A DNA stretch of 64,000 nucleotides. Origin: a virus. The position numbers and the translations under genes were made by a program. Location: IMG/VR virus record IMGVR_UViG_3300036770_001413, positions 43,546 to 107,545 of that record. One strand, 5' to 3'. This document shows positions 37,598-58,878 of the stretch, in pieces. The notes under the pieces were generated by a model. That model was not told the origin of the DNA. It searched no databases and saw only the letters and a program-made list of their open reading frames with translations. Numbering within the stretch: position 1 is the first letter of the stretch; each line of letters opens with the position of its first letter.

Positions 37598-37730
37598 AAG
37601 GTTAAGTATAGCATTTATTATTCTAGTTGACTATAAATTAGGATTTCTAAAATGTTAATATATTTTTAATTTGTATGATGCAGGGTATTTAGATGTCCGA
37701 TTTGTCCAAATAGAGCGACCATATGTGATA

Positions 37731-37746
37731 TGTTTCACATGAAACT
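37731..37746. promoter_or_regulatory. parS-like palindrome 2 (overlaps a CRP-like site)
   Basis: TGTTTCACATGAAACT. Confidence 0.55.
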
Positions 37747-37854
37747 TGTGTGATTCACATCACCAATGTCCGATTTGCTCACATTTGTCTGGTTGAATAT
37801 GTCAGTGGGGGGGTGTAGTATTTAATTATTAGATAAACGAAAGGAGTCAATAAA

Positions 37855-38046
37855 ATGACTACACTAAAATATGAATATACTGTAAAGAATTTTACCTGTG
37901 ATGAGTGTGGAGAATTCTCCGATGAATTATCCAATATCACTACTGATATATCAGATACCACTATTACCGCCCTATGCTGTGATACTGAGTATTGGGTCTA
38001 TGACCTAAATCAGCTAGGTTATCAGGTTGAGGAGGTTATCCGCTAA
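37855..38046 (+). CDS. small acidic Cys-containing early protein
   Basis: CDECG...LCC; AACGAAAGGAG RBS. Confidence 0.65.
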   Translation: MTTLKYEYTVKNFTCDECGEFSDELSNITTDISDTTITALCCDTEYWVYDLNQLGYQVEEVIR

Positions 38047-38156
38047 TGATAGACTCACTAACTAGAATTGACTGTAATGAGTGTAATGGTCAGGGTCTTA
38101 TATTCTGGGGCAATGACTCAGACTACGATGTTGAACCTTGCGAGTGTGTGGCGTAA
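38046..38156 (+). CDS. 36-aa Zn-finger-like peptide (not in ORF track)
   Basis: MIDSLTRIDCNECNGQGLIFWGNDSDYDVEPCECVA; GAGGAGG RBS; paralogue of 39511-39672. Confidence 0.65.
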   Translation: MIDSLTRIDCNECNGQGLIFWGNDSDYDVEPCECVA

Positions 38157-38233
38157 ATCACACCAGACACGCCCTAGATAGGCTTGAAAATGTCAGACCT
38201 ATCTGATAGCCTTACGGCATAACAATTAAATAA

Positions 38234-38289
38234 GAGAGTATGAGCCTAGCAAATAAACCGAAAGGGTGAGCCTAGCAAATAAGACTCTC
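38234..38289 (+). repeat. 16-bp direct repeat inside an inverted repeat in a 5' leader
   Basis: GAGAGT..TGAGCCTAGCAAATAA-ACCGAAAGGG-TGAGCCTAGCAAATAA..ACTCTC. Confidence 0.7.
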
Positions 38290-38311
38290 ACTAACGAAAG
38301 GAAATAAATAA

Positions 38312-38476
38312 ATGAAAATCACTTACTCAATATGGCAGGGTAGCCTAATCAAGGGCTCACGATTCACCGCCTCAAATATGAAAGAAATCGCTAAGGTTAT
38401 AGATGACCTAAACTCAACAGGTGCTAAACCTAAGTTTGAGTATTTCATCTCTCAAGTAGAACAGGATAACAAGTAA
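38312..38476 (+). CDS. hypothetical early protein (54 aa)
   Basis: AACGAAAGGAA RBS; MKITYSIWQGSLIKG... Confidence 0.65.
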   Translation: MKITYSIWQGSLIKGSRFTASNMKEIAKVIDDLNSTGAKPKFEYFISQVEQDNK

Positions 38477-38655
38477 TGACTTACGCTATGACTTGGGAGC
38501 GAGATTATCGCTCCTACAAATACGAAACTATTCAAGATAATTATCTTGATGATGACTTAGATGATGAACCGACAGACTTTACCGAAGTTGCCTTATCAGA
38601 GATTTCTCTTGATGAATTAGACGATGACGAATTAACAGAATTGGGTTTAATATAA
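38476..38655 (+). CDS. highly acidic 59-aa protein
   Basis: 20 D/E versus 3 K/R; TAATG coupling. Confidence 0.6.
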   Translation: MTYAMTWERDYRSYKYETIQDNYLDDDLDDEPTDFTEVALSEISLDELDDDELTELGLI

Positions 38656-38802
38656 ATGGATACATATAACAGAATACTAAAGGCTCAACAGGAGCGTAGA
38701 GAATTACAGGCTCTAAAGGATAAGCAAGTAGTAGAGGCTATGTTTGCTAATCATATGCGCCCTCTAAATAATAAGCACTTACTAAAGGAAATAGAGAGAT
38801 GA
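38656..38802 (+). CDS. hypothetical protein (48 aa)
   Basis: directly follows the previous stop; MDTYNRILKAQQERRE... Confidence 0.5.
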   Translation: MDTYNRILKAQQERRELQALKDKQVVEAMFANHMRPLNNKHLLKEIER

Positions 38803-38882
38803 TAAATCTTATTCATACCGCCGCCCTATTATCTTTGTGTATAGGGCTAGGCTGGGCGTTTGTGATGTTTATCACACGCTAA
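38799..38882 (+). CDS. 27-aa single-TM peptide
   Basis: MINLIHTAALLSLCIGLGWAFVMFITR; ATGA overlap. Confidence 0.4.
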   Translation: MINLIHTAALLSLCIGLGWAFVMFITR

Positions 38883-39106
38883 ATCGGCGTGTCAGCTTGA
38901 CAAGATCGGCGGGCCCCCGCACAGTTGTGCGGGCGATTTATCCCTTATGAGCATTATGTCCGATTCCCCGAAATCCTGCGACACGCCGAGAATTTTGTGA
39001 ATTTTCTCACACGACTGAGCGTCTCATATTTTGGAATTACTCGCTAGTAAGTAGAGAAATGTCGGTGGGCTTTGGTAAAATATCAGCATAAAGAAAGGAA
39101 AACTAA

Positions 39107-39319
39107 ATGAAAACTTATTCAATAGTAGATTTGCTAGTTGACCAATACTACGCCCCTACTTCTCTCCGCCGTAGATTTAATGGTGGAATTATCAATTACG
39201 CAGAAAAGCGTGAAAATGTTTATTTATCCGAAGGCTACGAGGCTTTCGCTATTCGCTACCGCCCAACAGGGTCAATTCAAGACCAATGGGCAACAGTAGC
39301 CGTAAAAGTCGCCGACTAA
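39107..39319 (+). CDS. hypothetical early protein
   Basis: own promoter (39060) and GAAAGGAA RBS. Confidence 0.65.
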   Translation: MKTYSIVDLLVDQYYAPTSLRRRFNGGIINYAEKRENVYLSEGYEAFAIRYRPTGSIQDQWATVAVKVAD

Positions 39320-39372
39320 ATGTCGGTGGCTTCCACTATAATCAGATTTATCAAAACGAAAGGAAAACTAAA

Positions 39373-39510
39373 ATGGATCTAAAAGAATTTAGAGATTTTA
39401 TTATTGCCCAGCGCTTGGCAGAAAATAAAGAAAAGCGCAACGCTAATCTCACCGCAATTTTGTCGGTGGCTAATGCTACAATTACCGAAACAACAGGAAA
39501 GGAAAACTAA
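39373..39510 (+). CDS. hypothetical early protein (start moved to 39373)
   Basis: RBS at 39355; MDLKEFRDFIIAQRL. Confidence 0.6.
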   Translation: MDLKEFRDFIIAQRLAENKEKRNANLTAILSVANATITETTGKEN

Positions 39511-39672
39511 ATGAGTAAAATGAAACGACTACTAGAGGAAATTTCTAATTGCGATACTTGCTTTGGAAATGGCTATCTATACTACGGAGATGAGGAAACT
39601 TTTGATGTTGAGCCTTGTCTATGTAATCCAGAAAGTCTTGAACACCAACTATTCGGAAAAGAGGCTGACTAA
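39511..39672 (+). CDS. 53-aa Zn-finger-like peptide (not in ORF track)
   Basis: CDTCFGNG...FDVEPCLC; promoter 39461 and GAAAGGAA RBS. Confidence 0.65.
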   Translation: MSKMKRLLEEISNCDTCFGNGYLYYGDEETFDVEPCLCNPESLEHQLFGKEAD

Positions 39673-39872
39673 TGTATAAACTATTTACTTACTATGACGG
39701 AAAATTAGAATTCACCGCTAATTTCTCAGACGCTCTTGAAGCGTTTGAGGCTTTCGCAAGATGTAAAGATGTAGGTTTTGCTATTGAAAACGCAACTTAT
39801 AATCTAGAAATGCCAACAGGCAAAATGTATACAAAAAACTTTGACAGAATAGGTTTGGTATCTCACCGATGA
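39672..39872 (+). CDS. hypothetical early protein
   Basis: translationally coupled ORF. Confidence 0.55.
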   Translation: MYKLFTYYDGKLEFTANFSDALEAFEAFARCKDVGFAIENATYNLEMPTGKMYTKNFDRIGLVSHR

Positions 39873-40060
39873 TGACTAGAAAAGACTATGTCGCTACCGC
39901 AGAAATTCTAAACTATGTTAGCGATAAAACCCACCCCGCTATTTTTTCTAAAATGGTAAATGATTTCGCAGAAATGTTTGCGAAAGATAATCCTAAATTT
40001 GATGTAAAAAGATTTCACGAAGCGAGCAATTATCGTGTTCCAAAATTTACAGCGAATTAA
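39869..40060 (+). CDS. conserved-looking small phage protein (MTRKDY...DNP.FD..RF type)
   Basis: motif pattern recalled from phage small proteins; not searched. Confidence 0.55.
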   Translation: MMTRKDYVATAEILNYVSDKTHPAIFSKMVNDFAEMFAKDNPKFDVKRFHEASNYRVPKFTAN

Positions 40061-40160
40061 AAAAGTTTTGGATTTGCGCCGTAGTAATGCGGCGCAACCA
40101 ATGCGAAATAAAAAAATTTATTCACGAAAGCGAAAGCATAAAAATAAATTTGACAATTAG
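40035..40160 (+). CDS. 41-aa basic peptide with ArfA-like Y.RK.KHK tail (not in ORF track)
   Basis: MFQNLQRIKKVLDLRRSNAAQPMRNKKIYSRKRKHKNKFDN (GTG start). Confidence 0.5.
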   Translation: MFQNLQRIKKVLDLRRSNAAQPMRNKKIYSRKRKHKNKFDN

Positions 40161-40277
40161 TTGAAATGGCCCGCAAATATGTGTGGGGGCCTGATGTGAT
40201 TTACGACACACACGGCGTGTCCCCGAAATTTTGTCAGTGTAATCTGTTATACTAGCGGCATAACGAAAGGAAAACTA

Positions 40278-40424
40278 ATGATAAAAGTTGCTTGTTTATA
40301 TTATGAGATTTGTGGCACTGCTACCTATTTTGTTGATGAGGCGGAATATGAGGTCTATGGCGATGATTGGGCATGCGCCGAATGCTTAGATACTGTTGCC
40401 GAATTCGCTGTCGGTATGTGGTGA
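40278..40424 (+). CDS. 48-aa acidic Cys-rich peptide
   Basis: promoter 40232, RBS 40262; C..Y..C...WACAEC. Confidence 0.6.
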   Translation: MIKVACLYYEICGTATYFVDEAEYEVYGDDWACAECLDTVAEFAVGMW

Positions 40425-40437
40425 TAGAATGTCCACT

Positions 40438-41157
40438 ATGAAATTGAAACGCTCTAACGATAGGAAGGTTGCTAATGCCGTATCAAAAAATGGAAAGACC
40501 CCAACAATTGCCAACACTTTTGGATTGCCTGCTGGAAAAGATTACTCCTGCCCTGGTGCCACTAGTATTTGTGAAAGTGTTTGCTATGCAGGAAAACTTG
40601 AAAAAGTCTATAAGGGAGTAAAGGCTGTGCTCCTACACAATTGGGAGCTCCTACGCAATGCAGATGAGCCTACTATGGTTGACTTAATTGAGGATATGAT
40701 TGCAGACTTTAGAAAAGATTGCGATAAGCGCAATGCAGAAAAGTTATTCCGTATTCACTGGGACGGCGATTTCTTTAGCGATACCTATGCACGGGCGTGG
40801 CAATATGTAATTACGCAAAATGCCGATATTCAATTTTGGGTTTATACTCGTGTAAAGTCTGCAGCCCTTATTCTTAAAGATATTTCTAATCTATCACTTT
40901 ACTATTCTACCGATGATGAGAATAAAGAAATTGGGCACGAATTAAAGCGTGAGAATGGTATTCGATTGGCTTATCTCGGAAAGACTTTTGCAGTCACCGA
41001 AAATGTAATGAAAGAGTTAACTGGTAAGCCTGGTGCTAAATGCCCTGAAAATGCTAAGAAAATTCCACTTATCTCTACTAATGGTTCCGCCTGCGTATCG
41101 TGTGGTCTGTGTGTTTATGGTAAAGCAGACATAAGATTTTCTGCGAGTAAAAAATGA
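40438..41157 (+). CDS. Gp88-like (radical-SAM-like Fe-S) phage protein
   Basis: SCPGATSICESVCYAG, FRIHWDGDFF, FWVYTR, C-terminal CP...CVSCGLC; leaderless start 7 nt after TAGAAT. Confidence 0.7.
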   Translation: MKLKRSNDRKVANAVSKNGKTPTIANTFGLPAGKDYSCPGATSICESVCYAGKLEKVYKGVKAVLLHNWELLRNADEPTMVDLIEDMIADFRKDCDKRNAEKLFRIHWDGDFFSDTYARAWQYVITQNADIQFWVYTRVKSAALILKDISNLSLYYSTDDENKEIGHELKRENGIRLAYLGKTFAVTENVMKELTGKPGAKCPENAKKIPLISTNGSACVSCGLCVYGKADIRFSASKK

Positions 41158-41453
41158 TGAATGCGCCATATGCAATACACGAATTGCAGCAATTAATTTG
41201 GGAGGATTCTATGGACCACTTGGCCGAATGCACGTGTAGTCTCTGTATAACACTGGATGTAATTAATGAATATGTCGGGGGCCCCGCTTGATCCCCCGCC
41301 CGCAAATGTGTGGGGGCCCAAGCATAGTTACGAGTCAAGTTAAAAACGCCCTGGATTTTGTGATTTTTATCACAAAAAATAATTAGACCTAATCTGATAA
41401 ATGTCGGTGGACTACGCTATAATTGCGACTTAACCAAACGAAAGGAAATACAA

Positions 41454-41714
41454 ATGGAAACTGCAATTGATACAACTAATTGGGTTAAATACCCTTTTAC
41501 TGTTGATGGAATTGACTTTGTGTCTTTAATAGACCCTAAAGGAAGTTTTTACCCACAACTAGAGGCTATGCCTACTCAACTGCTTAATGCTCTTAATGAG
41601 AGCGCAATTAGAGAGTTTATTGGCTCACCCGCCAATTTTTCTTTAGATGAATTACAAGGGGAATTAGATGAAATTAACCTTGGCTATTCGCAGGCTCTAA
41701 TTACCTTAGCCTAA
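41454..41714 (+). CDS. hypothetical acidic early protein
   Basis: promoter 41402, RBS 41437. Confidence 0.65.
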   Translation: METAIDTTNWVKYPFTVDGIDFVSLIDPKGSFYPQLEAMPTQLLNALNESAIREFIGSPANFSLDELQGELDEINLGYSQALITLA

Positions 41715-41769
41715 AAATGTCGGTGGGTAGGTGTATAATCTACCCACTAACAACAACGAAAGGAAACAA

Positions 41770-42042
41770 ATGTTATCAACCGCAACTGCCTTAATTAAGG
41801 CAACCGAGGAAGCAATTTTTGATGAGGAGTGTATGTCTTTTGCTCAACAATTCTGCCACCATAAAGATGAATTAACCCCTGAATACTTTGCTAAGTCTAT
41901 TTATCTTTATTCAACTATGATAGCAAGTCTAGCAATAGATAAGGCTATGAAAGTTTTATTAACTCAGGAGCAAGTAGAGGAATTATGCTCTGCTATTGCT
42001 GAATTAGAACAAATGGAAAATGAGGTGCTAAATGGGAAGTAA
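41770..42042 (+). CDS. hypothetical early protein (start moved to 41770)
   Basis: promoter 41718, RBS 41755. Confidence 0.65.
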   Translation: MLSTATALIKATEEAIFDEECMSFAQQFCHHKDELTPEYFAKSIYLYSTMIASLAIDKAMKVLLTQEQVEELCSAIAELEQMENEVLNGK

Positions 42043-42298
42043 TTTTGCTCATGACTTAGCTGATTATGACTTAGGATTAGACTTATCTACCGCTATCAAG
42101 ATACACCTAACTTCTAATCACTACCCGCCAATTCCCGTTGAAATGGTAGAGCCGTGTATAGATGCTATTGACGCATACCATAATGGCGATACGGATCAAG
42201 AAATACAAATGCCAAAAGACATAACCTATAAAGGCAGAAATACCGCCCCCGCTTGGGCTATCATAGAGCAACACCACCTAGAGGCTTGGTGCGAATAA
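42032..42298 (+). CDS. hypothetical protein
   Basis: HL.SNHYPP.P...CIDAI...HHL..W motif. Confidence 0.6.
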   Translation: MGSNFAHDLADYDLGLDLSTAIKIHLTSNHYPPIPVEMVEPCIDAIDAYHNGDTDQEIQMPKDITYKGRNTAPAWAIIEQHHLEAWCE

Positions 42299-42350
42299 AT
42301 GTCGGTGGGCTATGATAGGATAGCCTTCCAAACTAACGAAAGGAAAACAA

Positions 42351-42506
42351 ATGGGAACAACCCTAGAAATCGGACAGACCTTCACGACAGAAAAATCTGG
42401 CGTAGTAGGAACAATTAAAGCAGTAGATAACCACCCTTCAGGCGTGGCTCGTATTCTGCTTGATGTAAATGGCAAAGAACGCTGGACTAGCGTATCTGCT
42501 AAGTAA
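42351..42506 (+). CDS. 51-aa small beta protein (not in ORF track)
   Basis: promoter 42300, RBS 42335; MGTTLEIGQTFTTEKSGVVGTIKAV...RWTSV. Confidence 0.65.
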   Translation: MGTTLEIGQTFTTEKSGVVGTIKAVDNHPSGVARILLDVNGKERWTSVSAK

Positions 42507-42578
42507 TCAAATGGCAGGGCTCACAATGTCGGTGGGCTCTGCTACAATTCTCGCTCAACAACTAACGAAAGGAAAATA

Positions 42579-43001
42579 ATGGCTAGAAACGGAAAATCTA
42601 TTCAAGTCAAGATTGCTACAACTAAAGTAATCAAGGCACTTGAAACTAAATTGGCAGACCTGAAAAAAACTCAGGCTACCCAAAAAACCAATGAGGAGAA
42701 ATACTCAAAGGCGCAAGAGAAATGGGCTAAGGAAGTTGCTAAACTTGCTCTCGCTCAAATCGCAAAGGCAGAAAACCTACGAGCAAATGTTCGCTACAAT
42801 GGCGAAATAAATGTAGATTTTGATTTACCTAAAGGCTCTATTGAATTACCAAAAGAACCTGAAAAGGATTTTGAAACCTATAACGATTGGCAGTATCGGG
42901 AAATGTTTGAGGAGATAGAGAACGCTATCCGTATTCTCAAGATGACCGATGAGGAAGTAGTAAATACTTCTACCTATAACGCTATCGCTCGTTATCTCTA
43001 A
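42579..43001 (+). CDS. hypothetical early protein
   Basis: promoter 42527, RBS 42564; followed by hairpin GGGGGCTAGA/TCTAGCCCCC. Confidence 0.65.
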   Translation: MARNGKSIQVKIATTKVIKALETKLADLKKTQATQKTNEEKYSKAQEKWAKEVAKLALAQIAKAENLRANVRYNGEINVDFDLPKGSIELPKEPEKDFETYNDWQYREMFEEIENAIRILKMTDEEVVNTSTYNAIARYL

Positions 43002-43070
43002 TAGTATGGGGGCTAGACAAAATCTAGCCCCCTATGCTAAAATACTTATCCCTACTAACAAAGGAAAGAA

Positions 43071-43280
43071 ATGCTAGATGTAGAAATCTACGAAATGGAT
43101 TATTCAGTATCCCCTGGCGGTGTGAATTGCTGGGAAATGACTATTGGTAATAAATGCTATTCAGACTTCAAAACTGCTGGACAGGCTTTAGACCACTTGC
43201 TAATTATGTATCCTGACTCAGGATTTAATTTAAGTGTTGTATCACTTGCTAATTATTTCAAGGAGGATACTTATGTATAA
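43071..43280 (+). CDS. hypothetical protein
   Basis: AAAGGA RBS; sigmaA-like TAGACA-N17-TAAAAT promoter. Confidence 0.55.
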   Translation: MLDVEIYEMDYSVSPGGVNCWEMTIGNKCYSDFKTAGQALDHLLIMYPDSGFNLSVVSLANYFKEDTYV

Positions 43281-43530
43281 TCGCTATCGTGTAGAAATAT
43301 ATGACGAAAACAAATTAAATGATTTAACTCTATACTTTTCTGACGGAGTAAATAGAGAACACTTATCGGAATTAGTTTTTGCTAATATCCGCAGATTTCA
43401 AGGCAAGGTTAAAGCCTATGTCTTTGATAAGAAAAAGAAAGAAAAAGTTCTTGCTATCTTTTATCCAGAAGAAATAGTTAAGAAATATAATAACAATAGA
43501 CTAACTAAAGAAGAAATTGGTTTAGTTTAA
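43273..43530 (+). CDS. hypothetical protein (likely start MYNRYRV)
   Basis: AGGAGG RBS inside the previous gene. Confidence 0.5.
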   Translation: MYNRYRVEIYDENKLNDLTLYFSDGVNREHLSELVFANIRRFQGKVKAYVFDKKKKEKVLAIFYPEEIVKKYNNNRLTKEEIGLV

Positions 43531-43535
43531 AAGCT

Positions 43536-43590
43536 TGGGGCGGGTTTGTGTCGTGTAATCATCTAGATCCCCGCCCCATTTCCTTTTTTT
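43536..43590 (+). terminator. intrinsic terminator
   Basis: TGGGGCGGG...CCCGCCCCA followed by a T tract. Confidence 0.6.
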
Positions 43591-43609
43591 GGCCCGCATA
43601 TGTGAGGGG

Positions 43610-43639
43610 TTTTCCACAGGTTTAAGAGAGTTATCCACA
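43610..43639 (+). promoter_or_regulatory. pair of DnaA-box-like 9-mers
   Basis: TTTTCCACA (43610) and TTATCCACA (43631), 21 bp apart. Confidence 0.45.
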
Positions 43640-43749
43640 ATCCCCGAAATTTGTGAGATTGATCACAGATCAAAGATTCCCCTATCTTGTCAAATGTCAG
43701 ACCCACAGTGTATAATAACTAATTCAACTAACTATGAAAGGAAAAAACT

Positions 43750-44757
43750 ATGGCTCATAACCTAGAAACAAATGGCAATGAAGTTGCCTTTGCCCTACGT
43801 GGCACACCTGCTTGGCATAATCTTGCCAATCGCATTTTCTTACAAGATGAAAATGTATCAACTCAAATGATGTTAGATGAGGCTAAACTTTCCAATTGGA
43901 ACGTCCGCCTTTCTCCTGTCGTTGAGCATATCCCTGCTGATTGGAATGATAATTCTAATTCTCAATATGTGATTCGCACGAATCCATTTAATCAAGAAAC
44001 CGATGTTCTCTCTGTTGTCGGTTCTCGCTATCAAGTTGTCCAGAATGAAGATTTATTTGCTTTCGCAGATAATATCCTAGACGGCGATTCTCGTTGCCAA
44101 TGGGAATCTGGCGGTTCAATCAAGAATGGTAAAGTAGTCTTTGGCTCTCTTACTGTTCCACGTGAAATGGTGTTAGACCCACAAGGCGCTAATGATAAGA
44201 CAAAGTTATATCTAATTGTCTTTACATCTCACGATGGCTCTGTTGCTGTTCAGGCAGCGATTACACCTGTTCGTGTTGTATGCCAAAATACTTTGAATCT
44301 TGCTATGCGTAATGCTAAGCAATCATTCAAGATTCGTCATACTCAATCTGCTGACGGCAAGATAGCAATTGCTCGTGAAACTCTTGGTCTTACTCTTGGA
44401 TACTTTGATGAGTTTGAGAAAGAAGTTCAATCTCTATTCGCTTCCGAGATTAACGATAAGCAATTCTATGACATCGTTAAGGCTATTTATCCAAAGCCTG
44501 CCGATGACGCTTCTAAAATTGCTATCACAAAGTGGGATAACAAGATGATAACTCTTGCTGACCTTTACTTTAATTCGCCTACTAATGCGAATATCAAAGG
44601 CACAAAGTGGGGTGCTTTCAATGCGCTAACTGAGCGCCTTGATTATTTCCGCCCTACTCGTGGAAAGTCAGATTCAAAGTGGATTTCCGCTTCAGGGTTT
44701 GACCCAATTATTACCGCCGAGAAGAATAAAATTCTTCAGATTGTAAAATCGGCGTAA
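43750..44757 (+). CDS. DUF932 (TIGR03299-type phage/plasmid) protein
   Basis: MAHNLE...TPAWH.L; V.SRYQVVQNE..F.FAD; SHDGS...TPVRVVCQNTL; GTKWGAFNALTE..D. Confidence 0.82.
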   Translation: MAHNLETNGNEVAFALRGTPAWHNLANRIFLQDENVSTQMMLDEAKLSNWNVRLSPVVEHIPADWNDNSNSQYVIRTNPFNQETDVLSVVGSRYQVVQNEDLFAFADNILDGDSRCQWESGGSIKNGKVVFGSLTVPREMVLDPQGANDKTKLYLIVFTSHDGSVAVQAAITPVRVVCQNTLNLAMRNAKQSFKIRHTQSADGKIAIARETLGLTLGYFDEFEKEVQSLFASEINDKQFYDIVKAIYPKPADDASKIAITKWDNKMITLADLYFNSPTNANIKGTKWGAFNALTERLDYFRPTRGKSDSKWISASGFDPIITAEKNKILQIVKSA

Positions 44758-44925
44758 TCTATAAGGGCCCCGCAAGGGGCCCTGCAATTCCCCCAGGATC
44801 TTGCAGCTAATCGCCCGCAAGCCTGAAATCCAAAAAAGATTGTTACGACAAGGGGACGGAACCCCTGGATTTTGTCAGTCGGGTCCGCTATAATACTCCC
44901 CATGACAACAAACGAAAGGAATACA

Positions 44926-45381
44926 ATGGAACACGTATCAATAGATGCATATAACCCACATGCGTTTATTACTCTCCGTAAAATTAATCCAGAGAGCAAT
45001 GACAGTATGTTTATTATGCACAAAGCAACTGAACTCGAGGAAACTCTAGATAGAATTAAGAATCTAGAAAAACTAGTCGAGATTACTCAGAACCAGATTG
45101 GCCAAGTTCTTGGCAATATGACTGCAGATGGCTGGTATAGTTCGAGCACAGATAAATCAGAGGTATTGTCAGACCTATGTGATATCTTTGACCATGAACC
45201 AAAACAAGAAATCAGAATCACAGGAACTATGACATTCGAACTACGCTACGATTGTCCACTTGACGAAGTCGAAGATTTTGACGCTCGTTATTTTGCACAG
45301 GACAACTTGTCTGTTGACTCATATAACGGCAATGTTATTGTCGAATCATTCGATATCGAAGATGCGGATGTGGATTGGTAA
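44926..45381 (+). CDS. acidic hypothetical protein (start moved to 44926)
   Basis: promoter 44873, RBS 44911. Confidence 0.6.
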   Translation: MEHVSIDAYNPHAFITLRKINPESNDSMFIMHKATELEETLDRIKNLEKLVEITQNQIGQVLGNMTADGWYSSSTDKSEVLSDLCDIFDHEPKQEIRITGTMTFELRYDCPLDEVEDFDARYFAQDNLSVDSYNGNVIVESFDIEDADVDW

Positions 45382-45590
45382 TGTATTATCAATTACAAGC
45401 ACCTGATAGGCTATCTCTTGAGATGGCCTATTGGGAAGCACAAATTGCTGGATTAGACCCAACTTGGATTGGCGGTAATGTCATGGACATTGGCACAGGA
45501 CAAATTGAAAAGGTTTCAGCCTTGATTTCTAAGCATAACTTAGATATACTAGTTGAAACAGATTATCAGCCAACAGGTTACAGGAGGTAG
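45375..45590 (+). CDS. hypothetical protein
   Basis: coupled ORF. Confidence 0.5.
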   Translation: MVMYYQLQAPDRLSLEMAYWEAQIAGLDPTWIGGNVMDIGTGQIEKVSALISKHNLDILVETDYQPTGYRR

Positions 45591-45591
45591 C

Positions 45592-45750
45592 ATGGACTAC
45601 AAAGAAGGCTTTCAAGATGGCGTTCAATTTACTCGTGAGGTAGTTATCGCCAATATTCGTAAATGGGCGGAATCCCATGACGAAGGACATGTATTAGATT
45701 GGGTAGCAGATAGAATAGAATTTGGGACATTAGATAATGACCTCGGATGA
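45592..45750 (+). CDS. hypothetical protein (likely start MDYKEGF)
   Basis: AGGAGG RBS. Confidence 0.5.
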   Translation: MDYKEGFQDGVQFTREVVIANIRKWAESHDEGHVLDWVADRIEFGTLDNDLG

Positions 45751-45952
45751 TATAACTAAACCAATCTATTGTGACCGTTGCCCTACCTCCCGTGCTGCTT
45801 ATTTAGTTAAAATACTAAATGGGGAATTAGCTTTTTGTAACCACCATTACAGAAGGCACAAAGAGGCCCTTGACAAGATGGCCTATGAAATTATAGAATT
45901 AAACCGTAAAGAAAAAACACCTCAACTAGAAAAGGAAGAAATAAATGGGTAA
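45737..45952 (+). CDS. small Zn-binding protein (CDRC...FCNHH)
   Basis: motif. Confidence 0.55.
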   Translation: MTSDDITKPIYCDRCPTSRAAYLVKILNGELAFCNHHYRRHKEALDKMAYEIIELNRKEKTPQLEKEEING

Positions 45953-46352
45953 TAGAGCGAACTTCGTATTCGTAGACGGAGCAGGCGATTCAATCGTGCT
46001 GTATGGGCACTGGGCTGGACATCAAATGCTAGGCAAACTAGCGGACGCTGTCATTGCCGCCAGGCCTCGATGGAACGATGAATCATATGCAACACGTATC
46101 GCAATCAGTCAACTAATTGGAGACCAATGGAACATGGAAACTGGATGGGGTCTGCAGATTAATTCAATTAGCGATAATGAGCATAAGATTGCCGTCATCA
46201 ATTGGAAAGAGCGGACGTTCAGTCTTCACGCAGAGGACGACCATCGCAACTTAGACAACAAGGTTCTAGGAATGAAGAACGAGGCTATATTCACTATGGA
46301 CCTCGAAGCATTCTGTGAGAAATACGCATTGGATGGATTGTTAGCCGTTTAA
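45945..46352 (+). CDS. hypothetical protein of the MG.RA...Y.HW.G phage type
   Basis: MGNRANF...VLYGHWAG. Confidence 0.6.
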   Translation: MGNRANFVFVDGAGDSIVLYGHWAGHQMLGKLADAVIAARPRWNDESYATRIAISQLIGDQWNMETGWGLQINSISDNEHKIAVINWKERTFSLHAEDDHRNLDNKVLGMKNEAIFTMDLEAFCEKYALDGLLAV

Positions 46353-46370
46353 ATATGGTATAATAATTAT

Positions 46371-46505
46371 CCATGGCAAGGTGCCGCTATTAGCGATATC
46401 CGCAAGTGGCTAAGTAATGCAGCTTTTACTTAATTCCTTTCGTTGCAGCTAGCAGCCTTGTTTGTTTATTGATCTAGATCCCCCAGAAATGGGGGATTTA
46501 TTTTT
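46371..46505 (+). ncRNA. candidate anti-RBS small RNA
   Basis: TGG-TATAAT at 46356-46364; closing stem GGCAAGG/CCTTGTT; hairpins CGCTA-T-TAGCG and TAAGTAA/TTACTTA; ATTCCTTTCGTTG at 46433-46445; terminator GATCCCCCA-GAAA-TGGGGGATT plus T-rich tail. Confidence 0.6.
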
Positions 46506-46636
46506 GCCCGCAGAACCTGAGAGTAAAATTAGCTCTTTACGTAATCTAATGTATTTTTCCCAGAATTGGGGTATATTGCCAAATGTCAGTGGGGTAATAT
46601 ATAATTGGACCATTCAACCAACGAAAGGAATATACT

Positions 46637-47404
46637 ATGCCTAACTGGGTATATAATGGTCTTACAATTGAAGGCAATCCTGAATTAGTAAATGACCTTG
46701 TAAAACAACTTAATAAGCCATTTGTCATGTTACATGATAATTGGAATCCTACATCTGGAAAAATGGAAGTAGTTCAAACTACATATCCTAATCCTATATT
46801 TGCATTCTATAATATCTATAATCATAGACAAGCAGGTATATCTGATAAGGACTATCTTGCACAACCGCCACGAGATATGCCCATTGAAGAACAAATGCTA
46901 TTTCAGACAAATGATTGGTATTCATTTAATGTTCGTGAATGGGGCACAAAGTGGGATGTTGCTGTATCTGAAAATAAAGAATATGCAGATACATATATAG
47001 AGGGTCCTACTGAGAATGGAGAGAATCTAGTAGTTTATTATAATTTTAATACTGCATGGTCTCCGCCTATGCCTGCCATTTCTAAACTATCTGCACAATA
47101 TCCTAGTTTATTGTTTACTATGTCCTATGAGGAAGAAACAGGTTGGGGTGGGGAATGCGAGTTCCTCCGTGGAGAAATGATTTCTGAATCTGATTATAGT
47201 AATAAATGCCGTGATTGTGAATCAGAAAATACATTAGATTATTGTGAGAATGATTGTGGCGAGATATGTTCATCTTGTAATTGGATGGGTGAGGCTGATT
47301 TAGAGGCGGTAGCAGAATGTCAGACCCATAAGATATACTTGGATTCCGAGCATGTCCCTGATTATAGAAAGGAAGCACTAGAAAATGCAACACGGAGCAT
47401 TTGA
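46637..47404 (+). CDS. DUF1281/YubB ferredoxin-like protein with C-terminal Cys cluster
   Basis: MPNWVYNGLTIEG, WYSFNVREWGTKWDV, FNTAWSPP, YEEETG. Confidence 0.78.
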   Translation: MPNWVYNGLTIEGNPELVNDLVKQLNKPFVMLHDNWNPTSGKMEVVQTTYPNPIFAFYNIYNHRQAGISDKDYLAQPPRDMPIEEQMLFQTNDWYSFNVREWGTKWDVAVSENKEYADTYIEGPTENGENLVVYYNFNTAWSPPMPAISKLSAQYPSLLFTMSYEEETGWGGECEFLRGEMISESDYSNKCRDCESENTLDYCENDCGEICSSCNWMGEADLEAVAECQTHKIYLDSEHVPDYRKEALENATRSI

Positions 47405-47612
47405 TGATGTCGATTTAATGGTAAAAGACGCAATATTCTCAGATATTGCTGACCAATTACTAGAAGACTGGATTAATAACTTATTAGATGAGGGTCAATA
47501 TTTTGCAGATTTGCAAGTTGCCTCTATGTCTGGTGACCCATTTTTACAGGATAAATTTAATAAGTTCTATAATTTAACTCCTGAACACAATGATTACTTT
47601 GAGGTGGAATAA
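47385..47612 (+). CDS. acidic hypothetical protein
   Basis: GAAAGGA RBS. Confidence 0.5.
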   Translation: MQHGAFDDVDLMVKDAIFSDIADQLLEDWINNLLDEGQYFADLQVASMSGDPFLQDKFNKFYNLTPEHNDYFEVE

Positions 47613-47830
47613 TGGAATCTGAATATATTAATAGGAAGACACAGTTAACTACTTATCTTCAATTACATATAATGTCTTTGAATGAGGACTTAGTTCAGAT
47701 ATCTAAGCATATGGATTCCTTGGACCCCGCCTCAAAAGATTATGCTGAATTAGATATTGAGCATACCTATACAAGCGGCCAAGTTTCTGCTACAATGCAC
47801 ATCCTTGAATATGTAGAGGAGATAATGTGA
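47612..47830 (+). CDS. hypothetical protein
   Basis: TAATG coupling. Confidence 0.55.
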   Translation: MESEYINRKTQLTTYLQLHIMSLNEDLVQISKHMDSLDPASKDYAELDIEHTYTSGQVSATMHILEYVEEIM

Positions 47831-48099
47831 ACACATTAGAACTGGAACCACACCTGCAGAAGCAGGTTGACGCTGGGTCCTCTGGGACTGATATCTTGCA
47901 CGGGCATTTAAAGGTGCTCATGTTGGACGCAGAGCGTGAATTGGAGGAAGCACAACGCATAGAGGATGAAACAGAAGAAGCAATGGATTCCATGGAGCGG
48001 AAGTATTGGGAAGGCCAATTAGACGCTCTTACATATGTCTACCAAATGACATATGCATTAGCATTTGCAATCGATGAAAGGACAAAGAAGAATGGATAG
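47827..48099 (+). CDS. hypothetical protein
   Basis: DSMERKYWEGQLDAL helical motif. Confidence 0.55.
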   Translation: MNTLELEPHLQKQVDAGSSGTDILHGHLKVLMLDAERELEEAQRIEDETEEAMDSMERKYWEGQLDALTYVYQMTYALAFAIDERTKKNG

Positions 48100-48496
48100 A
48101 GTTCATATAGAATCATTAGATGTGCTCAAAGCAAAAGAGCAATTAGATCTACAGGAGGCAACACGTAGAGATGATGTTTATAATCAACTAAATGAGATTA
48201 TAGATAAATTAGAGAAGATTCCTGTCTTCCCGTCATTAATGTGGGTATGGTCCTTTGACGTTATCAGAGAGATATTTGAGAACTATCAGATGAAGGACCT
48301 TGCTGTAAATGATTATGTTGATGAGGCTGTGCCTGAAGGCATAACATTAAAACAAATCTTTGATAAGTTCTGGGATGATGTAGACGGGTTCGGTCTTAGC
48401 ATGGATTCGGGCGGGGACATCATAGAAGAGACAATCAGAGATTGGATGAGAGATAACAATTTCCTAGTATCCCTGGAGGAGGAGTCAGATGAATAA
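48092..48496 (+). CDS. acidic hypothetical protein (likely start MDRVHIE)
   Basis: GAAAGGA upstream. Confidence 0.5.
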   Translation: MDRVHIESLDVLKAKEQLDLQEATRRDDVYNQLNEIIDKLEKIPVFPSLMWVWSFDVIREIFENYQMKDLAVNDYVDEAVPEGITLKQIFDKFWDDVDGFGLSMDSGGDIIEETIRDWMRDNNFLVSLEEESDE

Positions 48497-48740
48497 ATAT
48501 AAAGTATTTGGAGATAAGGTAGTTGACTACTATATTAATGTAGAAGCAACTTCTGCGGAGGAGGCATGGGACATTGCCTCCAATGCAGCAACGACTGATT
48601 GGATCCAAATGGAAACAGATAACACCATTCAGGTTCATTTTGTAGATAATGAGCTTGAAGAAGATACATCTAATCTATTAGAAGATGGATATCCGAATAT
48701 AAATAACGATATTATCATATCGGACAAATCGGACATTTAG
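48489..48740 (+). CDS. acidic hypothetical protein
   Basis: VEATSAEEAWDIA motif; GGAGGAG RBS. Confidence 0.55.
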   Translation: MNKYKVFGDKVVDYYINVEATSAEEAWDIASNAATTDWIQMETDNTIQVHFVDNELEEDTSNLLEDGYPNINNDIIISDKSDI

Positions 48741-48843
48741 TACTAAGCTGTGTGCAACGGGCACAAAGCTACGGTTACGGGGTATTTACAAATTCCCTGG
48801 AATCTGATAAAATATAACACTATCATAGAAAGGATAGACAACA

Positions 48844-48990
48844 ATGGCAACAAAGCGTGAATATCTAGTATCAAAGGGAATTACTGTTGGCCGCCGTGGC
48901 CGATTCTCTGCAGCTGCTAAGCAGGCTTTGTCTGAGGCGGAAAAGAATGGAATTAAGTTCACCGCTGAAGTCAAACAAGCAAAGAACTAA
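48844..48990 (+). CDS. Lsr2 DNA-binding-domain-like peptide (48 aa, not in ORF track)
   Basis: MATKREYLVSKGITVGRRGRFSAAAKQALSEAEKNG...; TTTACA-N17-TAAAAT promoter, GAAAGGA RBS, downstream hairpin. Confidence 0.65.
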   Translation: MATKREYLVSKGITVGRRGRFSAAAKQALSEAEKNGIKFTAEVKQAKN

Positions 48991-49064
48991 ATAGATCAGA
49001 TCCAAAGGGGCTGGCGCAAGTCAGCCCCTTATGATATAATCGAGGGTTCAAAGAGAGGCGGAAC

Positions 49065-49373
49065 ATGAGAAGAAGAACCAAAGTAGATAAAGTAATAGAT
49101 AGTTTAGAAGAAATCCTAAACGACCATCATTTTCACCCAGCGTTATTTGCTAATATCATTATCACAAGTTATCCACCATATACCCAAAGTAAATTATTAG
49201 AACTAATTAAGTATATTGAGGAATATCATTACCAAGAACTGGCTCTCGATGAGAAAACAAAAACGGGGGCTTACCGAAATAATAACCCAGTACAAATTAA
49301 ATCAGATAACAGTTGGGTACATGAAGAATTCCATGGACAACCTGCTCGTATCAATACACAAGCAGTAATATAA
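49065..49373 (+). CDS. hypothetical protein
   Basis: TGA-TATAAT upstream, GAGG RBS. Confidence 0.55.
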   Translation: MRRRTKVDKVIDSLEEILNDHHFHPALFANIIITSYPPYTQSKLLELIKYIEEYHYQELALDEKTKTGAYRNNNPVQIKSDNSWVHEEFHGQPARINTQAVI

Positions 49374-50146
49374 ACTAATCTAATATAATACACCTAGGGG
49401 TGAATTGGACATATATGTCCGATTTGCCCCTTTTGTGTTAACTATTAGCGGGCAAAAATTCCCCTTTACGAGAGCATATAAAAAATCCCAGAAAATTTGA
49501 TCATTATCTAAAAGAATATAACAAAATGTTATAATAATATAACTAAATAGATATAATATTGATCAGAATCTGGGTAAATTCTGGAGCATATTTCTGGCTA
49601 AATATAGCCATATTTATGGCTACGAGCCAAAATTCTCCTTTACGAGGCATTGACAAAAATCCTGGAAAATGCTGCATATGGATCCTATTGACATTACGAC
49701 ATGAATATAGTAGTGCTCAATTACACATATATCTATTTAATTATTATACAATAACATTTCGTTATGAATCTATAACCATTTTACTCCACAATGCTCCACA
49801 ATACTCCACTTTAAAGGCCTTAGAAAGGCCATAGAGAGGAGATAAATTGGAGGGGGGTAGGAGAAGATAGGAATCTATCTGATCAAATTTCTACAGGAAT
49901 TGTAGCTACTCTTTATAGATCTTTATAGTATTCCAGATTATATATAGGGTTATAGCTGAGAATGTTATACCCATACCATAGAACCATATCCATACTATTC
50001 TGGCAAAGAGGTCTATTTTGATTCCCCCGCCCCTTTATGCCAGTCACCTATATTTGGATCCATCATATTTGGATTAACTGGTAGTCCAGATGGATATATT
50101 ATATGTATAACTCCTGGTTGACTAAGATCAATTATCCTATCTTCTG

Positions 50147-54197: not shown

Positions 54198-54493
54198 CCT
54201 TCAAGCTCCTTTACGAGCTTGTGCTTCGGGTATGCTCCAACAAGTTTCTTTACTGGTATTCCTTTTTCAAATACTAGCAAGGTGGGAATACTTGTTATCT
54301 CATACTTTTGTGCCAACTCTGTTTGTTCATCTACATGAACTTTATAAACTTGTACTTTGTACTCGTCTTCTAACTCTTCTAATATTGGAGCAACCTTTAA
54401 ACAAGGTCCACACCAGTCCGCCCAGAAGTCTACTATAATTATATCATTTTCATCTAAAGACTTGCTGAAAGTTTCTTTTGTTAAATTAATCAT
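54188..54493 (-). CDS. trxA: thioredoxin
   Basis: VDFWADWCGPC...SIPTL; start 54493 after GGAGG. Confidence 0.9.
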   Translation of the reverse strand: MINLTKETFSKSLDENDIIIVDFWADWCGPCLKVAPILEELEDEYKVQVYKVHVDEQTELAQKYEITSIPTLLVFEKGIPVKKLVGAYPKHKLVKELEGWI

Positions 54494-54959
54494 TATCCTC
54501 CACATGAGTAGGCCAGTAGTAACTGCAAGATTCACAGCAAGTATATCCTAGTCGCCTATAGTCCGCAAATTCATGATAGAAATAATACTTGTCTGGGTCC
54601 TTCTCGTAGAGCCTGCCCTTATGAGAGTAATGCAAAGGCTCTTCTCCTAACCACCAAGGCTCCTGAGACTCGAGAAACATGAAGTTCTCTTGATATATCT
54701 CATCAAACTTCTTTCTTGTGCTATTTTTATAGCCACGCATGATGATCTCTTTGACTATGGCCTCATTGTATAAGAAGAGCCAGTCTTCATGACCCTCCCA
54801 CATTTTGACTGCTGGGTGATTCTTCCAAGCACCTGAACTGTAAAGTCCAGCTAAAGACTTTAATACTTGCAGATTTTCTACACTCTGCTTGATAAGTCTT
54901 TTGCGATCTAAATGCTTTGCAGTATTTGCAAAGTCCGCCTCTGGTAAAAATGTTTGCAT
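54486..54959 (-). CDS. pyrimidine-dimer DNA glycosylase/endonuclease V-like (MSMEG_6728 family)
   Basis: MQTFLP.ADF...A..LD.KRL.KQ.VE..Q...HPAVKMW.G...PWWLG...H.SH...L..KDP..Y. Confidence 0.8.
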   Translation of the reverse strand: MQTFLPEADFANTAKHLDRKRLIKQSVENLQVLKSLAGLYSSGAWKNHPAVKMWEGHEDWLFLYNEAIVKEIIMRGYKNSTRKKFDEIYQENFMFLESQEPWWLGEEPLHYSHKGRLYEKDPDKYYFYHEFADYRRLGYTCCESCSYYWPTHVEDND

Positions 54960-58056: not shown

Positions 58057-58369
58057 TAGGTATACCCTCCAGCTCGCATCTTACTCCATAGGATTCTATG
58101 AGTTTTTTAACTTTTGAAACATAATCTATTACTTCTTCTTTTTTAGATCCGTCAAATTGTAAAAAATTGTCTTCATATAATCTTAATGCTAGAAAGTCTG
58201 GATACATTGCTACATCCATCAAAAGAAGCATTGGCTTTTTAATTTCTCTTACCCGCTTCTTCATTTCTTCTGTGTAAAATACTGGCTTATTGGGTTCGCC
58301 CGTCCATTGATTAATTCCATACTTAAAATGATTATTGTCGTAAAAATGCTTACTATCGTTAAGCGACAC
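58040..58369 (-). CDS. hypothetical protein
   Basis: overlapping operon ORF. Confidence 0.55.
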   Translation of the reverse strand: MSLNDSKHFYDNNHFKYGINQWTGEPNKPVFYTEEMKKRVREIKKPMLLLMDVAMYPDFLALRLYEDNFLQFDGSKKEEVIDYVSKVKKLIESYGVRCELEGIPSGRVL

Positions 58370-58670
58370 CTTTACTCCTTAGCTTCTTCCAGGCTTCTGG
58401 GGTCTTATGTAAATTTTTTGACTTGTCTATTTCTCCAGATGACAAATAAACTCCTCCCCATACTCCGTATTCTGAATTTTTAACTCCAGAATCAAAACAC
58501 ATTTTCATAACTGGACAAGACATGCATGCCTCGTCTATGTTATTGGCAACGTTAACATCAGATTCGTACTTATCATAGAATAGATTTGTTTCCATTCCTC
58601 GACATACTGCTAGATGCCACCAAGAGAAGTCTTCTGGATCTACCCCTAAATTATCTAAAATATTTGACAT
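58359..58670 (-). CDS. whiB: WhiB family Fe-S transcriptional regulator
   Basis: W..LAVCRG...LFY...ACMSCPVMKMC...EYGVWGG; probable start 58670. Confidence 0.85.
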   Translation of the reverse strand: MSNILDNLGVDPEDFSWWHLAVCRGMETNLFYDKYESDVNVANNIDEACMSCPVMKMCFDSGVKNSEYGVWGGVYLSSGEIDKSKNLHKTPEAWKKLRSKGVA

Positions 58671-58878
58671 ATTTTTTAGGGAGCTCCCAGACTCCAATAT
58701 TATTTACTTTTATTCTCTTAGATATTCCCCAAGAGTTTTTTCTAAACATCCCGTTTTTATCAGTAAATCCAGAAGAATCCTTTTTCCATATAATTAAATC
58801 ATAATTATCCCAAAATGGGGATATGTCTTTTGCCCTTTTGATAAAGAGTTCTACACCTAATTCATTAAGATTTAACAT
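58651..58878 (-). CDS. hypothetical protein, first gene of the whiB operon
   Basis: AAAGGA RBS; TTGACA-N17-TATAAT promoter at 58949-58920. Confidence 0.55.
   Translation of the reverse strand: MLNLNELGVELFIKRAKDISPFWDNYDLIIWKKDSSGFTDKNGMFRKNSWGISKRIKVNNIGVWELPKKYVKYFR

Follow-up and report, generated by a model that had tools for sequence, protein, structure and literature searches.

The element considered here is a promoter motif, TGTCRG-N10-TAnnnT, that recurs along a block of small genes in a stretch of 64,000 nucleotides (the window; bases 43546-107545 of the IMG/VR phage record IMGVR_UViG_3300036770_001413, 107,545 bp in total). The best explanation for this array, to which we assign a probability of roughly 0.6, is that PafBC, an activator of the actinobacterial host, reads the TGTCRG box and boosts transcription from the block promoters by sigma-A RNA polymerase (RNAP), a prediction made from sequence. 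The array suggests that the phage switches on its own genes by way of the host's single-stranded DNA (ssDNA) alarm.

A promoter array in one gene block

The window was scanned for TGTCRG-N10-TAnnnT against a background of 100 dinucleotide-preserving shuffles. It contains 16 exact matches where 0.90 ± 0.95 are expected (maximum 5 in 100 shuffles), all on the + strand and within approximately 9.5 kb (37800-47339). A scan of the whole 107,545-bp genome (38% GC, with a 127-bp overlap between its ends) returned only the same 16 matches and none on the reverse strand; the reversed-pattern control gave 1. The original prediction, made from the window sequence alone, had listed 14 copies in a single orientation. 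All 14 coordinates proved right and the common orientation holds genome-wide (16 forward, 0 reverse), but two copies, at 45167 and 47318, had been missed. The full-genome scan that it proposed, run here with the pattern, places no copy outside the block.

At 12 of the 16 sites the -10 hexamer ends 24-33 nt 5′ of an ATG that carries the Shine-Dalgarno (SD) cassette ACGAAAGGAAA. Promoter, leader and SD form a repeated cassette up to 63 nt long; a search for known RNA families did not match the cassette and recognised only the tRNA. The position just upstream of a ribosome-binding site or a leaderless ATG, initially stated for each listed site, is seen at 14 of the 16 (SD and ATG at 22-45 nt, or leaderless at 7 nt); the other two are 38191, which has a 99-nt leader, and 45167, which lacks a convincing gene. 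Four sites rather than two lie within coding sequence, overlapping the 3′ end of the preceding open reading frame (ORF; sites 39461, 40409, 45167 and 47318). The TG of an extended -10 is present in the right register at 9 of the 16 window sites; among the 14 sites first listed, 9 were said to continue with TG and a recount gives 10.

The small-gene block (37800-49400, + strand; about 35 genes by ORF map) holds every PafBC-type promoter of the genome. It is divergent from - strand genes at its left and convergent with - strand genes at its right, and is presumed to comprise early or host-takeover genes. Family matches among its proteins are limited to a homologue of mycobacteriophage L5 gp88 (PF17338) and members of DUF932, DUF1281_C and DUF7455. 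The block is transcribed from about 15 predicted co-oriented promoters of one class. A Megablast search of the block against 50,697 phage records gave no match.

Relatives were sought among environmental sequences: an IMG/VR search with the gp88 homologue yielded 172 related contigs, from which 80 loci were kept. These contain 1081 forward and 5 reverse motif matches. Five near-complete relatives each have 11-20 co-oriented matches within one 10-12 kb block and 0-3 elsewhere. The logo built from 730 distinct sites reads aAA-TGTC[A/G]G-T-[G/C][G/C]-n-n-t-c-T-G-c-TAtAAT, and the promoter class can be written (A)AA-TGTCRG-T-G/C-G/C ... T-G-n-TAtAAT, a -26 element combined with an extended, near-consensus -10. 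Positions outside the search pattern are conserved as well, namely those at +6/+7 behind the box (T 73%, G 56%) and the extended -10 (T 62% at -15, G 80% at -14). There is no -35 element: between -30 and -3 the information content of the 730-site logo never exceeds 0.24 bit, and a TTGACA-like hexamer is consistent in no site class, a weak one occurring at a few operon-head sites. A proposed division into two promoter classes, TGTCAG with a -35 and TGTCGG without, was dropped, the two being indistinguishable across the family.

The register of the box is nearly invariant. In 492 of 493 boxes near TGnTAnA[A/C]T, the box starts exactly 16 nt before the TA, and on the other strand none of 237 TGnTAnA[A/C]T matches carries a box. 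When sites were anchored independently, using only the SD cassette and its best upstream TAnnnT (501 distinct contexts), the exact box was recovered in 378; single mismatches fell on the outer T (6) and the last G (6), and only once on the GTC. The promoter of the gp88 homologue illustrates how these sites behave in relatives. It is found either as TATAAT-N7-ATG (leaderless) or with a leader and SD, and is kept although flanks, leader and upstream gene vary. Such retention amid changing surroundings argues for real promoters under selection, and this comparison shows the block sites to be real, conserved promoters. In the leaderless forms the ATG lies exactly 7 nt past the -10, the actinobacterial leaderless layout.

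The repeated cassette raises the question whether the motif is a functionless by-product of repeated duplication of one promoter and ribosome-binding-site unit, since promoter, leader and SD recur together over as much as 63 nt. However, what the copies have in common is confined to the box, the TG and the -10, spacer and leader being variable. The box also persists with other leaders, SD cassettes and flanks, and leaderless and leadered forms occur at one and the same gene. An origin by duplication alone is scarcely credible on these grounds.

The remaining genome is carried on the - strand. About 20 plausible promoters were recognised there, all with a TGnTAnAAT extended -10 and none with the box (examples at G000:C1:597, 13888, 18449, 35256, 39283, 56647, 75573 and 77567). 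They serve structural and replication genes and mostly lack a -35. Sites resembling TTGACA-N16-18-TATAAT are not enriched between 34500 and 51000 (67 against 58 ± 7). The earlier view that promoters elsewhere are of the ordinary or extended -10 kind is thus upheld for the extended -10 form on the - strand, but not for the TTGACA type. The phage has two predicted promoter classes, of which the one with the box marks the small-gene block. As TGn and TATAAT alone serve the phage promoters outside the block, the box probably adds regulation, as a conditional boost that also sets the block apart, and is probably not strictly required. The block promoters may have a basal activity that is independent of PafBC.

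The PafBC element and a candidate host

The in vivo PafBC motif has been published as tGTCgg(N10)tA(N3)T, with its 5′ part at -28 to -23 and no -35 element; its GTC triplet is strictly conserved and is read by residues R46 and R50 of PafB (PMC8635444). PafBC positions itself between the DNA and region 4 of sigma-A, a mode of action termed "sigma adaptation" (PMC8635444, PMC6789036). Comparison with this motif shows the phage box to be the PafBC element in sequence, in register (-28 to -23) and in tolerated variation, as the original prediction had proposed in equating it with the PafBC or RecA-NDp promoter element. The pattern of mismatches, which affect the outer T or the last G and the GTC once only, fits the strict conservation of the triplet (PMC8635444).

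By its gene content this uncultured freshwater virus is an actinophage. Its portal protein has 57-59% identity to the portals of Stanwilliamsviridae that infect Streptomyces, phages which also share its WhiB-like gene (51-53% identity). Besides this gene it carries the L5 gp88 homologue, a DUF932 protein, an Api92-like protein and a replication and repair set comprising its own RecA, DnaE, DnaG, DnaB, a class II ribonucleotide reductase and a DenV-like pyrimidine-dimer glycosylase. A tyrosine integrase was sought in the phage and not found. The WhiB-like protein (58359-58700, - strand) belongs to a phage and metagenome subfamily with a conserved C-terminal N-x-H-K-T motif. The genes for RecA (L090:8286-9290), DnaE-type Pol III alpha (L090:9849-13118) and the DenV-like glycosylase (window 54486-54959) are all on the - strand; such repair functions are in keeping with a habitat exposed to sunlight and a lifestyle linked to DNA damage.

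The most plausible host order is the Nanopelagicales. It is proposed on account of GC content, the freshwater, riverine and aquatic sources of the phage, a shared recA-type promoter form and co-occurrence of a related contig with a Nanopelagicales metagenome-assembled genome in metagenome 3300044715. The DNA runs in which most of the stretch occurs are metagenomes of subsurface, aquatic, riverine and freshwater origin. GC content is 38% in the phage and about 43-46% in the host loci examined. Neither DnaE nor tRNA-Asn of the phage singles out a host: in 301 actinobacterial genomes, a sample with some marked unpublished on which no claim is based, identity to DnaE is uniformly 37-42%, and between the tRNA-Asn and Nanopelagicales tRNAs it reaches only 75-77%. 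Host loci were found with a codon-biased Wbl DNA pattern in low-GC actinobacteria; a search of genome contigs for host loci with a single WhiB-like protein gave no match.

The original prediction had called for pafB, pafC and the motif at recA to be verified in the predicted host, and all are present in this candidate order. In a Ca. Nanopelagicus genome, pafB and pafC (two WYL genes; L219:1069-1992 and 1919-2911) are neighbours and stand beside an FKBP isomerase gene. In the PDB the two proteins match best to chains of 7p5x, the RNAP-PafBC complex of M. smegmatis, one to PafB and the other to PafC (E 1.5e-31 and 1.6e-23, respectively), and the RMFER segment with R46 and R50 is kept in the Nanopelagicus PafB. 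Full-length PafB was found in 61 of 61 sampled Nanopelagicales genomes. These genomes contain 245 copies of TGTCRGTG-N8-TAnnnT, about 4 per genome, whereas the reversed-pattern control gives 45. Among 50 flanked host sites, more than half have a leaderless ATG or GTG 6-9 nt past the -10; host sites lack a -35 and often lack TGn. Among the genes behind them are one for a NapA-like protein, one for a small Cys-rich protein and one that has an SOS box. Upstream of recA in two Nanopelagicales genomes lies TGTCAGTG[C/G]C..CCTGCTACCTT, followed directly by an SOS box. The CTGCTA extended -10 of this recA promoter is that of the phage consensus; in a freshwater Microbacteriaceae genome the motif is present at recA and the CTGCTA form of the -10 is absent.

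Some Nanopelagicales chromosomes have clusters of PafBC-type promoters, with 9 in about 46 kb of G310 (L273-L275, C1:440-492 kb; 8 of the TGTCRGTG form) and 6 in 2.6 kb of G343 (L272, C1:822.7-825.3 kb). These precede genes for a Type II C5 DNA methyltransferase, a trypsin-like peptidase, two TPR proteins, a CAAX/Rce1-like protease and a LysM protein with an SOS box. From their content the clusters resemble a variable island of the defence type, controlled by the DNA-damage activator. One host site in G343 (C1:825225) is nearly identical to the phage site at 39060. The surrounding 20 kb has no homology to the phage, and the likeness is treated as convergence on the same motif.

Reading of the box

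Every promoter of the class bears the box, the first of the block included. The reader must therefore be present already when transcription starts. As the original prediction had advised, we searched the phage for a WYL or MotA-like activator. No WYL domain, sigma-70 region 2 or PafB homologue was detected, and a Pfam and PHROGs scan of 31 block proteins (30 encoded in the small-gene block and one immediately upstream) recognised no DNA-binding family; a reader with a novel fold would escape such scans. ESM Atlas searches with two conserved block proteins led to viral hypothetical clusters only. A helix-turn-helix of the PafB type is hinted at in one place only, by a 51-codon frame (G000:C1:5500-5565, - strand; locus L284) whose weak match to HTH_11 scores 15.6 bits against a cut-off of 25.

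These results bear on the possibility that an activator encoded by the phage or delivered with the virion reads the box, much as MotA/AsiA do in T4, the likeness to PafBC being convergence or mimicry. Most block proteins belong to no recognisable family and several are conserved (that encoded at 39869-40060 is found in 80 of 80 loci), so that candidates exist besides the sub-threshold HTH_11 match. The phage WhiB-like protein is another, as WhiB-like proteins bind sigma-A region 4. Against this stand the boxed first promoter, the failure to detect a WYL, PafB-like or sigma gene, and the presence of the same WhiB-like gene in Streptomyces relatives that lack the array. Moreover, divergent freshwater lineages that share only 1-5 early genes retain the array, and it is very unlikely that chance would reproduce the host motif in its sequence, its register and its tolerated variation. 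We regard a phage-borne activator as quite improbable.

The distribution of the array among phages points the same way. Eleven cultured actinophages (L5, Starbow, Muntaha, TM4, Bxb1, Giles, Bxz1, Omega, phiC31, BFK20 and Rosebush) have 0-1 matches each, and TGTCRG-N10-TAnnnT has no match in L5 and Bxb1. The Streptomyces relatives lack the array despite their 57-59% portal identity and shared WhiB-like gene. By contrast, an IMG/VR scan for TGTCGGTGG-N7-TAnAAT revealed at least 117 new loci, at least 58 of them with three or more co-oriented sites. Among the matches listed, all 58 multi-site loci have a GC content of 33-44%, some array-bearing loci share only 1-5 early genes and have other SD cassettes and flanks, and the portal, where on record, is 52% identical, no closer than in the Streptomyces relatives without the array. 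By this distribution the array follows habitat or host, not phage ancestry. Its persistence while the surroundings change is expected from a common trans-acting host reader. That a widespread group of freshwater lytic actinophages has made PafBC the master switch of its early or host-takeover genes seems to us an even chance.

If PafBC is the reader, this heterodimer of WYL-domain proteins, switched on by ssDNA, would dock on the box and stabilise the host sigma-A RNAP at the block promoters. The appearance of ssDNA in the cell, whether from injection of the phage DNA or nuclease attack on it, from phage replication or from UV damage, would thereby boost the block. The box would provide a strong conditional boost over the basal activity of TGn/TATAAT, and a marker setting the block apart. 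For the original proposal that the phage places its genes in the host's PafBC regulon, the identity of the motif, the actinophage nature of the virus, the lack of a recognised phage reader and the occurrence of PafBC in the candidate host have been borne out.

The promoters could instead be initiated through the extended -10 by host sigma-A alone, with the box serving as the operator of a phage shut-off factor or as a decoy for PafBC. That some 20 - strand promoters share TGnTAnAAT without the box indicates that an extended -10 seems to be enough in this host, and the block needs something that separates it in time from the remaining genome, as an operator might. For a decoy speaks the number of good sites, 11-20 per phage genome, compared with about 4 host sites of the commonest form (TGTCRGTG); the same numbers lead us to consider, speculatively, that the array draws PafBC away from host promoters. 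Yet neither operator nor decoy needs a fixed register, and the box keeps its 16-nt distance to the -10 in 492 of 493 cases. In the host, the box is an activator element of promoters that lack a -35, often lack TGn and are leaderless, and no phage DNA-binding protein that could act as the shut-off factor was found. We consider this alternative unlikely. A stoperator-like array for a repressor was rejected, since the sites keep a fixed register to the -10 and L5 and Bxb1 lack the motif.

Several observations weigh against activation by PafBC or limit it. PafBC requires ssDNA for its activation (PMC11804915), so that a strictly immediate-early role is not self-evident. The - strand promoters do without the box, and the block sites themselves have G at -14 in 80% of cases and a -10 near consensus; the box may thus not be needed for initiation. 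The phage flank prefers A at positions -1 to -3, a preference that the host sites examined do not have and that is due in part to TAA stop codons at this place. The Nanopelagicales are an inferred, candidate host order. Finally, RNA-library contigs from three metatranscriptome studies (freshwater, marine and riverine) cover 40248-40909, 42896-43226 and 44551-44881 at 90-100% likeness, and six RNA runs contain small parts of the block, contigs from four of them being short and of low depth, some spanning promoters. This material is compatible with expression of the block in nature; it shows neither the 5′ ends nor the strand of block transcripts.

PafBC and "sigma adaptation" have hitherto been known only as a host DNA-repair circuit, and papers linking PafBC or other WYL regulators to phages cast these as defence regulators. 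The literature consulted contains no description of a PafBC element in a phage genome; it does not extend to a 2025 paper on pafBC and mycobacteriophage resistance, seen only as cited in PMC12848934. If correct, the present explanation would make this the first phage known to exploit "sigma adaptation" in nature, and would reveal a new way of taking over transcription with no factor of the phage's own, by copying the promoter grammar of the host's ssDNA alarm. The host would be unable to silence the phage block without disabling that alarm, which serves recA and, in some genomes, an apparent defence-type island. Infection by abundant freshwater phages would be tied to UV and DNA damage in their hosts, the candidate hosts (acI/Nanopelagicales) being among the most abundant freshwater bacteria. 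Conservation of the box and of the PafB reading residues across Actinobacteria makes the promoters assayable in M. smegmatis, and the block offers a ready set of compact, strong promoters predicted to respond to PafBC.

Individual promoters and comparison with known systems

All promoters described below are on the + strand. The first of the block (TGTCAGTGG...TAGTAT, 37800-37821) lies 33 nt from the ATG at 37855, which opens a 63-aa frame. The next, a TGTCAGACC variant (38191-38212), is separated from the ATG at 38312 by its 99-nt leader. This leader contains two copies of a 23-nt repeat, 26 nt apart (38234-38282, + strand), both with GAGCCTAGCAAATAA; similar leaders, of the "gagcctagcaaataa" type, stand behind sites of the distant relatives L353, L383 and L401. 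Three promoters with the TGTCGGTGG form follow: one with TGG-TAAAAT (39060-39081), 25 nt from the ATG at 39107; one with TATAAT (39321-39342), 30 nt from the ATG at 39373; and one with TGC-TACAAT (39461-39482), which lies within the 3′ end of ORF 39373-39510, 28 nt from the ATG at 39511.

Promoter 40232-40253 (TGTCAGTG...TGT-TATACT) precedes the ATG at 40278 by 24 nt. Within the 3′ end of the ORF that starts there (40278-40424) lies promoter 40409-40430 (TGTCGGTA...TGA-TAGAAT), 7 nt from the leaderless ATG at 40438 of the gp88 homologue (PF17338; 40438-41157, + strand), a protein with 53-56% identity to proteins of cluster A mycobacteriophages. Homology to L5 gp88 begins at this very ATG, which points to a leaderless arrangement behind site 40409. 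The TGTCGGTGG form recurs with TATAAT at 41402-41423 and 41718-41739, each 30 nt from its ATG (41454 and 41770), and with TGA-TAGGAT at 42300-42321, 29 nt from the ATG at 42351. Promoter 42527-42548 (TGTCGGTGGGCTCTGCTACAAT), 30 nt from the ATG at 42579, is close to the form of the Nanopelagicales recA promoter.

In the right-hand part of the array, a TGTCAGACC variant (43695-43716) lies 33 nt from the ATG at 43750 of the DUF932 protein (335 aa), and TGTCAGTCG...TATAAT (44873-44894) lies 31 nt from the ATG at 44926. The motif copy at 45167-45188 (TGTCAGACC...TATCTT) falls within ORF 44926-45381 and is followed only by a leaderless ORF of 12 codons; its function is doubtful. Promoter 46584-46605 (TGTCAGTGG...TATAAT) is 31 nt from the ATG at 46637 of the Api92-like DUF1281_C protein. 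The last, again a TGTCAGACC variant (47318-47339), is located within the 3′ end of ORF 46637-47404 and 45 nt from an SD and ATG at 47385.

Other repeated signals accompany these promoters. CRP/GlxR-like sites (TGTGA-N6-TCACA) number eight (five exact, three with one mismatch) where 2.3 are expected, and every one of them falls in the block (37724-43667, + strand). Most are centred about 58-97 nt upstream of predicted starts, at promoters 37800, 38191, 39060, 40232, 41402 and 43695; that at 38861-38876 lies about 220 nt upstream of promoter 39060. The heads of gene modules may take a second host input through such sites. A GC-rich hairpin, GCCCGCAAATGTGTGGGGG, occurs at 38915, 40169, 41298 and 43592 (+ strand), just 5′ of CRP-like sites and module-head promoters, giving an apparent module order of hairpin, CRP-like site and PafBC-type promoter. 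In addition, ATGTCCGATT(T/C) is found three times (37693, 37766 and 38956, + strand) in the regulatory regions ahead of promoters 37800 and 39060.

The array can be set beside several known systems. Lambdoid prophages and phages with LexA-controlled genes likewise tie phage expression to the DNA-damage signal of the host; they do so through LexA/RecA-dependent relief of repression (cleavage of CI or LexA) at few operators, and are temperate. What is proposed here differs in being direct activation, at many promoters, by a LexA-independent activator, in a phage in which no tyrosine integrase was found. The stoperators of cluster A mycobacteriophages and the start-associated sequences of cluster K resemble the array in consisting of many asymmetric motif copies oriented with transcription; these are repressor-binding or translation-associated and are not locked to a -10. 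Extended -10 promoters share the TGn found at most block sites and account for the remaining promoters of the phage; the block sites differ by the invariant -26 box, absent from those others.

The middle promoters of T4 offer a closer architectural parallel. There, too, a box (the MotA box at -30) stands in for the -35, keeps a set distance to an ordinary sigma-70 -10 and marks a class of phage genes, MotA and AsiA acting through sigma region 4 by "sigma appropriation". Both T4 factors are phage-encoded and remodel sigma, whereas no phage factor was recognised here and the box is the site of a host activator. The likeness is most complete with the PafBC (RecA-NDp) promoters described in the "sigma adaptation" literature (Muller et al. 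2018, 2019, 2021; PMC8635444, PMC6789036). The 22-nt architecture is the same (tGTCgg at -28 to -23, N10, TAnnnT, no -35, invariant GTC), leaderless genes often follow in both, and PafBC as well as a recA preceded by the motif occur in the candidate host order. The phage departs from this model in using an array of 11-20 sites, in a lytic-type genome, to drive small genes without known function rather than DNA-repair genes, and in adding to the box TGn, a near-consensus TATAAT and a preference for A upstream, in promoters whose dependence on PafBC is predicted.

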